From: Firmicutes bacterium CAG:103
Lineage (GTDB): Bacteria > Bacteroidota > Bacteroidia > Bacteroidales > Bacteroidaceae
Assembly (NCBI GenBank): GCA_963600865.1
Contig: CAVCDC010000001.1
Location: 46,709-110,708, forward strand
DNA: 64,000 nt
Direction: 5' to 3'
A program made the translations under genes and the position numbers. Positions 17,605-26,261 of this stretch are shown one piece after another (the first letter of the stretch is position 1; each line of letters starts with the position of its first letter). Under the pieces are notes generated by a model. It did not search any database, was not told the origin of the DNA, and was given only the letters and a program-made list of their open reading frames with translations.

Positions 17605-17653
17605 AGGTGGTGTGCCGTTATGAGAAGACGTCGCACCACCTTTTTTTCTTTTT
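17605..17653 (+). terminator. intrinsic terminator of atp operon
   Basis: AGGTGGTG...CACCACCT stem followed by T-rich tract. Confidence 0.85.
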
Positions 17654-17757: not shown

Positions 17758-17789
17758 TTTGTTTTATTGGTAAATAATCTCTATCTTTG
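17758..17789 (+). promoter_or_regulatory. sigma-A promoter of His-rich leader gene
   Basis: TTTG(17758-61)-N20-TATCTTTG(17782-89), 12 nt before ATG 17802. Confidence 0.75.
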
Positions 17790-17801
17790 CAACGCAAATT
17801 C

Positions 17802-18215
17802 ATGATTATGCGAAGTAGACTGTTTTACCTGTTTGCCATTTGGACAGCAACCATCGGAATGTTGCTTTCTACAGTGATGATGCATCATCATCACTATCAG
17901 CGCATCTGCATGGTTGAACAGGAATGTCCTCAAGACGGACATGTAAACGATGAGCATACTTCCCATCATGACAACGAACAGGATGGATGTCAGATTCATC
18001 AGATGCATCATTTCTTCACCAATGCCAAGTTGGTGAAGGGAATAGACAAAAATATTTTTCTTGGTGGTCATCTCTTGACTGCCTTTTTCTCTTCACATAT
18101 TCCCCTTGCCCTCGGTAAAGACAAGTCTTTGGAAGCTTGGTGTAGTGAGTCATTCTACCTACCTGACGAATTCTTGTCTCAACAGGGACGACGTGGACCT
18201 CCTTGTCTCCTTTAG
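17802..18215 (+). CDS. His/Cys-rich exported-type small protein with C-terminal RGPP motif (resembles DUF6769; candidate arrest peptide)
   Basis: Hydrophobic N-terminus, then MMHHHH..C..C..H-rich region; ends GRRGPPCLL*; start ATG 17802 or 17808. Confidence 0.8.
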   Translation: MIMRSRLFYLFAIWTATIGMLLSTVMMHHHHYQRICMVEQECPQDGHVNDEHTSHHDNEQDGCQIHQMHHFFTNAKLVKGIDKNIFLGGHLLTAFFSSHIPLALGKDKSLEAWCSESFYLPDEFLSQQGRRGPPCLL

Positions 18216-18322
18216 GGAGAATTGTTTTGCTTTCTGTGCTTTTATTACTGCTACGATGTGATGTAGTAATACGTTCCAGAAAGCGAGGATCGTTTTAAAA
18301 CTCCAAATGGAATAAAGAAAAA

Positions 18323-18394
18323 TGCAACCCAGTTGCCAAACTTTCTTTGGAAAGCATGATGCAACTGTGTTGCAAGTACGTGTTTGTATCTTTG
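18323..18394 (+). promoter_or_regulatory. two palindromic operator-like boxes plus -7 promoter element of efflux operon
   Basis: TGCAACCCAGTTGCC (18323-37), TGCAACTGTGTTGCA (18360-74), TATCTTTG (18387-94). Confidence 0.65.
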
Positions 18395-18465
18395 CAAACA
18401 TGAATCGGGCAGTGGCAGACCTCTCGGGGATTTTTGTTGCTGTCCAGTAAAAACAATTAAAAGTT

Positions 18466-19650
18466 ATGAAGAGAATCATTTTTGTAGTTGTCATTACTGT
18501 GATGGCATTGGTAGGCTTTACCTTTTTTACAACGCATTCCGTTGCCAAATCGCAGGACCGTGAAGAAGAACATGAAGAAGAAGTTGACTACGCTGACATT
18601 CCGCTCACGGAGAAACAGGTAAGTGCTGTAGACCTCAGAATGGACGAGGTGAGCAAGCGTAGCATGGATCAGGTTGTTGAAGCAACGGGTGTCCTCTATC
18701 TTCCTGCCCAGAACAAGGGAGAAGTGTCGTCGTTGATGGGAGGTGTCGTGAAGAATATCTACGTCAAAGAAGGGCAGACCGTAAGTAAAGGACAGATAGT
18801 TGCATCTGTAGAGAATACCGATGTGATGAGTCTACAGCGAGAGTATTATTCAATCTATAAGGAATGTGAGTTTGCCAAGGCAGAGATGGAACGGCAGAAG
18901 TCACTTTCCCAAAGCGGTGCAGGGGTGAAGAAAACGCTCCAACAGAGTATTAAAGACTACCAAGTGGCACATGCCAGTCTGACAGGCATTGGACGTCAAC
19001 TGCAGCAGATAGGCATTTCCACGTCAGCTGTGGCACAGAGAAAGTTTGTTACCACATTCCCCCTGAGAGCCCCCATCTCAGGTGTCGTCTCTCAGATTAT
19101 GTCAAGTCTTGGGAGCTTTGCCGACATGCAGACACCAGTCATGAGTATCCGCGACAATCAGGCAGTGGAGTGCAACCTGAACGTTTTTGAGAAAGACTTG
19201 TCCAAGGTGAAGCCGGGTAATCGTGTATGGCTCTCCCTTACCAACCAGTCAGGGGTGAGTCTGTCAGGTGAAGTGTATGGCATGAATCAGTATTTCACGG
19301 ATGGTACGAAGAGCGTGGCAGTTCATGTGAGACTCCATCCTACGAAAGGTGTGAAGTTGTTTGATGGAATGTATGTGACTGGCAAGATAGCCACGAGTGC
19401 ACAACTCTGTCAGACCTTGCCTTCCAAAGCCATCGTCAAGACCGATGGCAAACAGTATATCTTTGCCTTGAACGGTTCTCCACGTAAAGGGAAATACAGT
19501 TTCTCCCGTCACGAGGTGTCTACTGGTGTAACAGACGGTAGATATACGGAGGTACAACTCTGCAAACATATCAAGGAAGGGCAGAAAATAGTGACTGACA
19601 ACGCTTTCTATCTTGCCTCCCTTACGGGTGACCATGGAGAAGAAGAGTAA
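18466..19650 (+). CDS. heavy-metal RND efflux periplasmic adaptor (CzcB/CusB-like MFP)
   Basis: N-terminal anchor, EEEHEEE patch, GGVVKNIYVKEGQTVSKGQ lipoyl half, LRAPISG, EKDL. Confidence 0.9.
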   Translation: MKRIIFVVVITVMALVGFTFFTTHSVAKSQDREEEHEEEVDYADIPLTEKQVSAVDLRMDEVSKRSMDQVVEATGVLYLPAQNKGEVSSLMGGVVKNIYVKEGQTVSKGQIVASVENTDVMSLQREYYSIYKECEFAKAEMERQKSLSQSGAGVKKTLQQSIKDYQVAHASLTGIGRQLQQIGISTSAVAQRKFVTTFPLRAPISGVVSQIMSSLGSFADMQTPVMSIRDNQAVECNLNVFEKDLSKVKPGNRVWLSLTNQSGVSLSGEVYGMNQYFTDGTKSVAVHVRLHPTKGVKLFDGMYVTGKIATSAQLCQTLPSKAIVKTDGKQYIFALNGSPRKGKYSFSRHEVSTGVTDGRYTEVQLCKHIKEGQKIVTDNAFYLASLTGDHGEEE

Positions 19651-22935: not shown

Positions 22936-24195
22936 ATGAAAACAATGAAACGAACGGTAATATATATGATATTCATGTCCTGTGCGCTAACTGTTGTCGC
23001 ACAGGAAGAAGGAGGTGTAAAAAAGGAACGCAGTCTCACACTTGATGAGTGTGTGTCACTTGCCATGAAGCAGAATTATGATGTACTGCAGGCAGGCAAG
23101 TCTGTAGAGCGGTCCAAGTTGATGCAAGGGACAGCCTGGGATGTAGGGAAGACCGACCTGTCTTTATCGCAAGACCCCACGTCAGGAGGAAGTCCCGACA
23201 ACTCGCTTAGTTTGTCGCAGACCATCGACTTCCCGACTGTCTATATCTCACGTCGCAAGCATCTGAAGGCAGAAACAAGTGCCGAGGCGGCAAAAATGGA
23301 GATGACTCAGAAAGCGGTGGAGGCAGATGTAAGTAGTGCTTATTACCGCATTGTTTACGAAGAGGAGCGACTTCGCATATTCGCATTGCAAGACAGTCTG
23401 TTGCAACGCTTCTATGGAATCGCCGAGAAGCGTTACCGTGCTGGAGAGACGCGCCAGTTGGAGGTGCTCTCTGCAGAGCGTCTTTTGGGTGAGTGTAGGG
23501 CGGAGAAGGCTTCAGCCGAGAGCGATGCAGAAGAGGCACGTCTGTCCTTGTGCCGCTTGATAGGGAGCAGTGAACCGATTGTTCCAGCCGACAAGGTGTT
23601 AAGACCTGTCTCCTTTGTGACAGGGCAAGGCTTTAACTACCTGTCAACCCCCGAGGGGCGTTATGCAGACAAGTGTGTAGAGGTGGCAGACAAAGCCGTC
23701 GCAGTGGCGAAAAACGGTTATGCGCCGAGTTTGTCACTGTCTTTGCGCAACCAGTTGGTACTTAGTTCTTGGAATCCATACCATCAAGACCGTTCCCGTT
23801 TTGACGGTGGCAATTTCATGGGGTTTGAGGTAGGGGTTGGTATTCCTCTTTTCTATGGAGCCACCCGTGCAAAGGTGAAGGCTGCCAAGAAGGAGCGTGA
23901 AATGGCAGAACTTGAACTAAAGGCGCAAGGTCAGCGTAGAGAGAAAGAGTATGATGCGCTGTTGAGTCGCATCAATGCCTCTCGTGTCCGTGTGGAATAT
24001 TATACGGAGAAAGGATTGCAGACAGCAGAGAAACAAGTGTCACTTGCCGCCTTGGAGTATGAGGCTGGAGAGATAGGCTATATAGAATATGTAGATATCC
24101 TGCGGCAACACTTGGATGAGAGGTTGAAGGCAGCTTCTGCCGTTTCCGAATACAATGAGACCGTAGTGGAATTGAAGCGAATGATGCCGTATTAG
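22936..24195 (+). CDS. TolC/CzcC-family outer membrane efflux protein
   Basis: Signal peptide MKTMKRTVIY..VVA-QE; LTLDECV, RYRAGE, GIPLF, YEAGEI. Confidence 0.9.
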   Translation: MKTMKRTVIYMIFMSCALTVVAQEEGGVKKERSLTLDECVSLAMKQNYDVLQAGKSVERSKLMQGTAWDVGKTDLSLSQDPTSGGSPDNSLSLSQTIDFPTVYISRRKHLKAETSAEAAKMEMTQKAVEADVSSAYYRIVYEEERLRIFALQDSLLQRFYGIAEKRYRAGETRQLEVLSAERLLGECRAEKASAESDAEEARLSLCRLIGSSEPIVPADKVLRPVSFVTGQGFNYLSTPEGRYADKCVEVADKAVAVAKNGYAPSLSLSLRNQLVLSSWNPYHQDRSRFDGGNFMGFEVGVGIPLFYGATRAKVKAAKKEREMAELELKAQGQRREKEYDALLSRINASRVRVEYYTEKGLQTAEKQVSLAALEYEAGEIGYIEYVDILRQHLDERLKAASAVSEYNETVVELKRMMPY

Positions 24196-24929: not shown

Positions 24930-26261
24930 TTAGTCAACTAAGCATTTGTCGAGTTCTTGGCAGATGGCATCTTTAGGCATGTGTTGTCCTATGAAGACAA
25001 TCTTTACCATTCTGTCACCAACCTTCTCGTCCCATTCCTTGCGCAACTGTTCCTCTCTTGCCAAGAGATCATCGAGTTGATCCTTGGGCATAGTTGCCAA
25101 CCATTGACCAGCCTGTTTCACAGTTTTCTGTTTGCCAGCCTGCTCGAAGACGTAGCACATGTCCCGTTCGTCGGCGAAGTAGCAGATACCTTTGGCACGG
25201 ACTACATCGCGTGGCCATTTTCTTGCCACAAACTCATCGAAGAGCCCCAGGTCGAATGGCTTCCTGCTGTAATAAACGAAGGTGCCGATTCCGTATTCCT
25301 CTGCCTCTCCTTCTTCATGGTCGTGGTGATGGTCATGATGGTGGTGGTGCTCATGGTCGTGATGATGATGTCCATGCTCATGCTCCTCATGCTCATGGTC
25401 TTGATGATGCTCATGGTGTTCATGCTCCTCATGTTCGTGATGGTGCTCATGTTCGTGATGGTGTTCATGTTCATGTTCATTGTGCTCATCTTCGTCCTCA
25501 TCATCCTCCTCATGCTCTTCTTTAGCCTTTCTTTCGGCTTCGATTTCCTGAATCCATCCTGCCGATGTGGCAACGGTGTTCCAGTCAAACTTATGAGTAT
25601 TGACGATTTTGTCGAGGTCGACATCACCATAGTTGCATTCGAATATTTCAGCCTTAGTCTGAAGTGCACGGATGATGGTCTTGAGCTTTTCCAACTTCTC
25701 TGGTTCCACATCGTCCACTTTGTTGAGCAGGATGATGTTGCAGAACTCGATCTGCTGGATGACGAGAGAAGCGAGGTCTTCCTCATCGATGTCTTTCTTC
25801 ATGAGTTCGTCGCCGCCACCAAATTCGTCTACCATGCGCAGGGCGTCCACGACGGTAACGATGCTGTCCAGACGGAGTATTCCATTCTTGATGTATTCTG
25901 GACCGAGAGAAGGTATGGAGCAGATGGTCTGTGCGATAGGGGCTGGTTCGCAGATGCCGCTTGCCTCGATGACGATATAATCGAACTTCTGCATGTCTAC
26001 GATTTCTTTGAGTTGTTCGACGAGATCCATCTTCAGTGTGCAGCAGATGCATCCGTTTTGCAGAGCCACGAGAGAGTCGTCCTTCTTTCCCACAACGCCA
26101 CCTTTCTCGATGAGTGCTGCGTCGATGTTGACTTCTCCGATGTCATTGACGATAACTGCGAACTTGATGCCTTTCTGATTGGCCAAGATTCTGTTAAGCA
26201 GTGTTGTCTTGCCGCTTCCCAAATAACCGGTCAGCAGCAGTACTGGAACTTCTTTTGTCAT
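24930..26261 (-). CDS. COG0523/CobW-family G3E GTPase (putative Zn metallochaperone) with long His/Glu linker
   Basis: TGYLGSGKTT, VNDIGE, NGCICC, IEASG, NKVD, RAKG, VFIG. Confidence 0.95.
   Translation of the reverse strand: MTKEVPVLLLTGYLGSGKTTLLNRILANQKGIKFAVIVNDIGEVNIDAALIEKGGVVGKKDDSLVALQNGCICCTLKMDLVEQLKEIVDMQKFDYIVIEASGICEPAPIAQTICSIPSLGPEYIKNGILRLDSIVTVVDALRMVDEFGGGDELMKKDIDEEDLASLVIQQIEFCNIILLNKVDDVEPEKLEKLKTIIRALQTKAEIFECNYGDVDLDKIVNTHKFDWNTVATSAGWIQEIEAERKAKEEHEEDDEDEDEHNEHEHEHHHEHEHHHEHEEHEHHEHHQDHEHEEHEHGHHHHDHEHHHHHDHHHDHEEGEAEEYGIGTFVYYSRKPFDLGLFDEFVARKWPRDVVRAKGICYFADERDMCYVFEQAGKQKTVKQAGQWLATMPKDQLDDLLAREEQLRKEWDEKVGDRMVKIVFIGQHMPKDAICQELDKCLVD

Follow-up and report, generated by a model that had tools for sequence, protein, structure and literature searches.

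The small leader ORF that precedes a metal efflux operon in the window (the whole stretch of 64,000 nucleotides analysed) encodes a DUF6769-like protein, whose His/Cys block, C-terminal R[AG]PP motif and position directly ahead of RND pump genes are conserved among its relatives. That leaders of this family act in cis by arresting translation is, in our judgement, highly probable. A fuller account, in which the arrest leader acts in cis, the stalled state is the ON state and two parallel inputs reach a divalent-metal efflux pump, has a slightly better than even chance of being correct for this locus.

The sequence-only reading of this DNA described an ORF of 137 aa with 13 His and 5 Cys that ends in GRRGPPCLL*, and translation reproduces each of these features (Table 1). 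An in-frame ATG at 17808 provides an alternative start. The N-terminal signal or transmembrane segment of that reading holds as a hydrophobic stretch (hydropathy 1.6), but a cleavage site is not evident. The leader appears to be a small exported protein with R[AG]PP close to its C-terminal end, and a search of all its 137 residues finds no CxxC motif. Under the CutF-like rule of PMC9973294, it has a length of 137 aa (limit below 150), PP at residues 133–134 (within the last 15) and a same-strand neighbour at 250 nt (up to 1000). CruR serves as the model for the predicted arrest, which would hold Pro133 in the P site and Pro134 in the A site; the two Pro codons are 18198-18203. RGPP occurs in 0 of 1374 ORFs of at least 300 aa in the source genome, and the leader is the only His-rich one of three short ORFs that end in R[AG]PP, so that its RGPP stands above chance. 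PF20558 (DUF6769) matches the leader with 20.4 bits (E 8e-4) and does not reach its gathering cut-off of 27 bits; the DUF6769 label is carried by 2 of 22 leader homologues, and the leader has a score of 0.97 against DUF6769 clusters by Atlas features. The leader is filed here as DUF6769-like rather than as a DUF6769 member. PF11162 (DUF2946) gives 15.4 bits, below its cut-off of 23.7.

Table 1 Features of the leader–pump locus (positions in the window)
Positions	Strand	Feature	Basis
17606..17647	+	terminator-like hairpin and T run after atpG	by eye; absent from hairpin scan list
17758..17789	+	P1, housekeeping-type Bacteroidota promoter TTTG-N20-TATCTTTG, no operator box	sequence; presumed consensus
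17802..18215	+	leader ORF, DUF6769-like, 137 aa	translation, Pfam, homologues
17820..17882	+	hydrophobic N-terminal segment, signal peptide or uncleaved anchor	hydropathy; helix in low-confidence model
17883..18029	+	His/Cys block, residues 28-76, predicted metal sensor	alignment; pN/pS 0.26
18063..18093	+	terminator-like hairpin and T run in leader linker	z -4.9; position not conserved
18192..18203	+	RGPP codons, predicted arrest site	conservation; pN/pS; PMC12992588
18199..18220	+	local hairpin over leader stop with U-rich tail, private to source locus	fold, shuffles, comparison
18220..18228	+	residual 9-nt pairing strand (predicted)	duplex and opening-energy computation
18323..18337	+	distal operator box, 1 mismatch, 37 bp ahead of proximal box	box scan
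18360..18394	+	P2: perfect TGCAAC-N3-GTTGCA box, 12 bp, -7 element TATCTTTG	sequence; box scans
18407..18445	+	13-bp hairpin, 5' leader of predicted P2 transcript	fold, shuffles
18450..18468	+	A-rich adaptor start region; 18450-18458 predicted to pair with 18220-18228	duplex computation
18466..19650	+	RND periplasmic adaptor, CzcB-like	TIGR01730
19683..22874	+	CusA/CzcA heavy-metal RND pump	TIGR00914, 1161 bits vs cut-off 701
22936..24195	+	outer-membrane efflux protein, TolC/CzcC-like	profile matches

A protein search returned 22 leader homologues with 34–94% identity. Conservation of HHHH and of the terminal R[AG]PP, which the earlier reading had proposed to examine, is complete in their alignment: all 22 carry both HHHH and RGPP, the latter opened by R131. 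The invariant positions of the His/Cys block are H28-31, C36, C42, D45, D50, H52, H55, E59, C63 and H69, three of them Cys. The homologue with 94% identity keeps RGPP, the His block and the spacing, as does the source leader. A larger collection of 79 loci combines 49 named loci, whose titles are mostly Prevotella or Segatella, with 30 from across the family, the source locus among the latter. R[AG]PP ends the leader in 79 of 79 loci (78 of 78 without the source locus); the search profile included RGPP, and 21 loci that matched through their N-terminal half alone still have R[AG]PP at the end. Linkage to metal RND genes, also raised by the earlier reading, is nearly universal, the next gene encoding an RND adaptor (MFP) or CzcA in 78 of 79 loci and the remaining locus stopping at a contig edge. 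Among 45 representatives less than 70% identical to each other, the motif takes the forms RRGPP (23), LRAPP (17), LRGPP (4) and RRAPP (1) and is followed by 2–11 residues. The spacing from HHH to Arg is 97–110 aa in 43 of these 45. All synonymous codons for Arg, Gly/Ala and Pro occur at the motif, and this codon use and the pN/pS values that follow show selection at the level of the peptide. pN/pS is 0.03 at RGPP, 0.26 in the His block and 0.71 in the linker (13 of the 14 representatives with an internal promoter, one distant locus excluded), so that the motif is still under selection in loci that carry P2. A looser filter applied to later loci gave 78 candidate homologues, of which 66 end in R[AG]PP, 2 in RGSP and 10 lack the motif; a DUF6769 relative (L214) has RGSP at its end in place of RGPP. 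A weak search for longer or fused leader homologues found none, and a DNA search of 61 relatives found no match above 76% identity across the leader. The leader tree has 3 of 42 branches starred and requires 9 changes for the internal-promoter label; because of this poor resolution, no order of architectural events is claimed.

Between atpG and the leader, the terminator-like hairpin would keep transcription of the ATP synthase operon from running into the leader. The leader's own consensus promoter, P1, was located as the earlier reading had it, the Bacteroidota consensus used being the one we take to apply. Counted by eye, 33 of 39 loci with the same architecture have a TTG 19–21 nt ahead of the -7 element. 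The MFP-CzcA-TolC order also proved correct and begins after a leader–adaptor gap of 250 nt. In the pump, the positions that we take to be those of the CusA methionine triad align to E, R and E, which does not match the Cu(I)/Ag(I) CusA subtype and makes a divalent-cation pump likely. ZneA and CusA are the nearest solved structures. Two genes beyond the pump operon, a convergent gene for a His-rich CobW-family GTPase (24930-26261 of the window, minus strand) has no box upstream.

The 250-nt gap was already noted in the earlier reading to hold a second promoter-like element. The element is present, and it is not noise but a conserved box at a fixed 12-bp spacing, that is, a conserved operator–promoter likely to drive the pump independently of the leader. 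TTG is absent from the usual -33 spacing of P2. The source genome holds three perfect boxes where 0.2 are expected, all 12 bp ahead of TAnnTTTG; conversely, 3 of 2417 TAnnTTTG sites have a box with up to 3 mismatches, all of them perfect. These three sites precede the pump, feoAB and a gene for a Cd/Zn-type P1B ATPase. When the spacer was left free between 6 and 20, a scan of 151 family genomes gave 99 matches, of which 92 had a spacer of 12 (table count), and a reversed-pattern control gave 0. A GTDB scan yielded at least 123 box loci, nearly all titled Bacteroidota. Among 77 genes downstream of the box, taken from 80 loci with full flanks, 55 belong to export or metal handling: 38 P-type ATPases, 6 CDF, 5 permease-HMA, 1 HMA and 5 RND adaptors. 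The box heads metal-export genes across Bacteroidota. The remainder are 4 DUF6769, 4 DUF6660, 4 TonB receptors, 2 FeoAB, 1 Fur, 2 others and 5 without a family; feoAB and the TonB receptors are out of place in a regulon of efflux alone. In the source genome the feoAB genes behind the box are fused, an importer among exporters (G000:C5:58540, L080; likewise L098 and L165), and the Cd/Zn-family ATPase (G000:C91:5504, L081:2077-3765) has 562 aa, with a cytoplasmic part that looks short.

A Fur-family gene (G000:C97:8660-9085, L085), which is divergent and one of three such genes in the source genome by Pfam, is the likely candidate for an activator at the box, judging from gene context. In 17 of 80 loci an orthologue is found no more than 1.5 kb from the box. 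Of 151 family genomes, 122 have an orthologue, which often adjoins the box or the ATPase gene, and the box occurs in 74 of these 122 genomes as against 2 of 29 without the Fur-like gene, both of the latter being less than 90% complete and related genomes not being independent. The rigid 12-bp phase together with the missing -33 TTG suggests activation. The Fur-like protein does not qualify as Zur: it scores 19 bits against NCBIfam Zur, with a threshold of 167, and the box targets are mostly exporters. A Zur-type starvation regulon is likewise rejected, the box not being found before cobW of the source genome. RegPrecise holds Fur-family regulogs for Bacteroidaceae and may already include this box.

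Sorted by the position of the box-promoter, the 79 loci divide into 39 that have it in the leader–pump gap, 12 that have it ahead of the leader, 1 with both and 27 in which none was found. A consensus promoter precedes the leader in 33 of the 39 loci with the box in the gap, as against 0 of the 12 with the box upstream. Where the box is in the gap, the predicted P2 transcript lacks the strand that is predicted to block the pump start. Several contigs (L003, L004, L013, L016-L018, L020, L021, L159) are titled Bacillota and carry Prevotella- or Bacteroidota-type loci; they are probably mis-binned.

A helix is predicted between a U-rich strand at the leader stop and the A-rich start region of the first gene in the pump operon, a region without a Shine-Dalgarno sequence. 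For each locus, the duplex between 33 nt from the first Pro codon and 36 nt up to the pump AUG was compared with those of all swapped partners, and a locus passed if its own duplex was better than at least 95% of these. Of 42 representatives (3 of 45 were removed as having no usable start), 20 passed and 22 failed, with shifted windows passing in 1–5 of 42. In a second set less than 70% identical to the earlier loci, 12 of 27 passed and 15 failed, with 2–3 for shifted windows; 13 of its 40 candidates had been removed, 10 as motif-less and 3 as start-less. Loci in both sets are related by descent, so that kin are not independent. Ordinary junctions of the source genome pass in 13 of 150 cases, sampled from 355. 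Passes are most frequent where the box lies in the gap (10 of 14 representatives). The helix sequences vary by locus and mostly start 2–14 nt inside the footprint predicted from standard ribosome footprint sizes. Masking to +16 makes the start region easier to open, the drop in opening energy being 2 kcal/mol or more in 27 of 42 loci and in 12 of the 14 with P2, although removal of sequence tends to open folds regardless of biology. By the same measure, the start region in predicted P2 transcripts of the representatives is as open as in the stalled state. RNAalifold did not recover the helix from 18 aligned gaps, so that a column-wise count of covariation is absent. Taking the second ATG as the start gives a stronger duplex in two weak loci (L002, -12.2; L021, -18.6), a post hoc result that is left uncounted. 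The gaps of L028, L016 and L043 hold repeat or palindromic insertions, and L028 retains the helix despite about 250 extra nt.

These features suggest how the leader may operate. RGPP would stall the ribosome while the His/Cys block undergoes export; the block precedes the Arg by about 100 residues, a distance that would place it clear of the tunnel and the translocon. In the first input, a constitutive-looking transcript from P1 would be kept silent for the pump because its U-rich strand pairs across the looped-out gap and blocks the pump start. Bacteroidia ignore the Shine-Dalgarno sequence and use adenines at -3, -6, -12 and -13 together with low structure (PMC13000457); because these upstream adenines must be open, the helix would block translation of the pump. 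Binding of metal, likely Zn, Cd or Co, to the His/Cys block would prolong the stall, so that the ribosome stays on the U-rich strand and the pump start is freed; stalling would thus mean ON, as in CutF and SecM. In the second input, the Fur-family activator would bind the palindromic box under cytoplasmic metal excess and fire P2, whose transcript would start downstream of the blocking strand and so bypass the leader. A more specific proposal, which we regard as tentative and somewhat short of an even chance, is that these inputs form an OR gate in Prevotella and Segatella, where a leader responding to periplasmic metal frees the upstream adenines from the helix and an activator responding to cytoplasmic metal fires the P2 transcript lacking the blocking strand. 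Other lineages have this promoter, found across the phylum, ahead of the leader, which would make the logic AND, or have none, and the source genome may be losing or rewiring its leader input.

In the source genome itself, the predicted duplex has 9 bp at -7.0 kcal/mol, a rank of 0.55 and a position +23 to +31 from the P-site codon, outside the footprint; it is the second weakest of the 39 loci with the same architecture, the predicted helix being strong in the majority of close relatives. The opening energy is 5.2 in the free state, 4.7 in the stalled state and 5.0 in the P2 transcript. A SecM/CutF-type start-hiding structure that overlaps the stalled ribosome is therefore found in silico in the 20 of 42 and 12 of 27 loci above, with the source genome not among them. 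The claim that the leader controls this pump in cis accordingly gains a plausible element in many relatives, but the switch barely works in silico here. Because the helix is short and lies beyond the footprint, the contribution of the leader is likely weak and P2 likely dominant; the leader may be coupled weakly or no longer at all, or attenuation at the private hairpin may have taken over. Uncoupling of the leader from the source-genome pump, with the peptide stalling or binding periplasmic metal in trans as suggested for CzcI and P2 alone in control, is unlikely. The weak helix and the absent in-silico switch point that way, as do the 250-nt gap with several strong hairpins, the terminator-like hairpins within the ORF and at its stop, the complete operator–promoter in the gap and the long branch of the source leader (0.85). 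However, RGPP, the His block and their spacing are intact here and in the 94%-identical homologue, the leader family is found only directly ahead of pump genes, and the AlphaFold model (pLDDT 53) predicts no confident free-protein fold.

Less likely still is that the stall acts on transcription, with the parked ribosome preventing termination at the stop hairpin or blocking Rho as in CruR, so that P1 reads into the pump operon. The earlier reading had reported a small hairpin spanning the stop, TCTCC-TTTAG-GGAGA, and it is present at 18206-18220; the favoured fold is a 7-bp variant at 18199-18219 with -8 kcal/mol. Its 5' arm falls within the predicted footprint and a U-rich tail follows, the T fraction near the stop being 0.47 compared with 0.23 genome-wide, and CruR uses Rho across a 162-bp gap. 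However, the hairpin is no better than shuffled sequences (z -1.2) and is not conserved in relatives; only 8 of 45 representatives have a terminator-like hairpin near the stop, and its geometry differs among them, so that the hairpin was rejected as a conserved element. The C/G ratio along the leader is only 0.9–1.9, and the U-rich tract is accounted for by pairing with the start region in many relatives. This modest ratio and the conserved operator–promoter inside the gap do not match Rho attenuation of the CruR type, for which a C>G region and a gap free of promoters would be expected. Terminator-like hairpins within the ORF occur in 11 of 45 leaders as against 2 of 43 pump stretches, at scattered positions; in 5 of the 45 representatives such a hairpin lies 103–119 nt ahead of the Pro codons. 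Rfam gives a single match at chance level.

C. glutamicum Zur is said to repress zinc-inducible genes, which counts towards the least likely alternative, namely the same architecture with another sign or signal: metal or a disulfide would relieve the stall, secretion, copper or iron would be sensed, or the box would be a repressor site. The opposite responses of CruR and CutF, the three invariant Cys, feoAB behind an identical box and the iron response of the B. thetaiotaomicron pump genes speak for it, and it is disfavoured by box targets that are mostly exporters, by the Cd/Zn family of the source-genome ATPase, by the lack of the CusA methionines in the pump and by the rigid 12-bp phase without a -33 TTG, which would favour activation over repression. 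In B. thetaiotaomicron, the pump behind a DUF6769 leader (BT2038-40) is up 2.5–3.3-fold in iron depletion (PMC10434189); this rise is not plainly a zinc-excess pattern and counts against the proposed mechanism of a metal-prolonged stall. The sign of CruR is also opposite to the proposed stall = ON (PMC9426467).

The closest mechanistic parallel is CutF of Rhodobacter capsulatus, a leader that is small and exported, combines a metal motif with a C-terminal Pro-Pro and, on stalling, opens an RNA structure over the start of the next gene (PMC9973294; bioRxiv 10.1101/2025.02.05.636593). Stalling of CutF has been confirmed (bioRxiv 10.1101/2025.02.05.636593), and CutF-like genes have been listed before RND genes and in Bacteroidota (PMC9973294). 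In contrast to the CxxxC and PPP of CutF, the leader has a His-rich block and RGPP; its predicted helix hides upstream adenines, whereas the CutF structure hides a Shine-Dalgarno sequence; and the predicted helix spans gaps of about 30–330 nt, whereas PMC9973294 expects unfolding to be limited to short gaps. The internal operator–promoter at the leader locus is a further difference from CutF. CruR, a DUF2946 protein of Bordetella pertussis, is similar to the leader in size (about 140 aa); it too has a C-terminal R[AG]PP and a long gap ahead of metal-homeostasis genes. CruR differs in having CxxC, in controlling an importer through termination by Rho, in being signal-independent and in lacking a start site within its gap (PMC9426467). 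Arrest by CruR has been demonstrated, and RGPP is a strong arrest core (PMC12992588). The DUF6769 (PF20558) RAPP uORFs share with the leader a hydrophobic N-terminus, HHHH, a Cys/His block, R[AG]PP and an RND adaptor or CusA/CzcA as the next gene (PMC12992588); the leader's Prevotella/Segatella branch differs from them in lying below the Pfam cut-off and ending in RRGPP. In Caulobacter crescentus, the CC2720(DUF2946)-czrCBA-zntA operon likewise opens with a small leader gene, and there a Fur-family protein (Zur) activates an RND pump together with a ZntA-type ATPase, but the box is a different one and the site lies upstream of the -35 and the leader (PMC4176598). The Caulobacter Zur also represses uptake genes (PMC4176598), whereas the P2 box is not found before source-genome cobW. 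CzcI of Cupriavidus metallidurans is a small leader ahead of czcCBA and, unlike the leader, is without a C-terminal proline motif (PMC9973294).

The earlier statement that no characterisation of such a leader was known holds in that no test of DUF6769 was found, but the class has been listed in silico (PMC12992588; PMC9973294). Among the entries listed in the Fig. 4B source data, RAPP uORFs precede RND adaptors in 620 vs 148 and CusA/CzcA in 50 vs 7 cases, with at least 45 mentions of DUF6769 (PMC12992588). No experiment, RNA helix or operator for DUF6769 leaders was met in the portion of that paper at hand, and it may discuss them further. Bacteroidales RAPP-like leaders of sec genes have been tested (PMC10987492). 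In the literature searched, which covered few subscription papers, DUF6769 was nowhere tested and neither a helix of this kind nor the box was described, and no account of the box appears in the available parts of PMC10434189, PMC3878776, PMC6613475 and PMC12574912. Two features go beyond this catalogued class and were not found in the literature searched: a predicted helix that would hide the start without needing a Shine-Dalgarno sequence, and a promoter, supplied with a candidate activator, that would bypass the leader. How arrest regulates downstream genes is an open question for the RAPP class (PMC12992588), and the proposed helix offers a testable answer as to how arrest peptides could control downstream genes where ribosomes ignore the Shine-Dalgarno sequence. 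A 2025 review describes zinc export in gut commensals as not understood (PMC12574912); the box and the Fur-like gene point to a metal-export regulon with a candidate activator across Bacteroidota. Small DUF6660 proteins, directly behind the box-promoter in L118, L120, L122 and L152 and in three of these right after a Fur-like gene, are possibly a second leader family.
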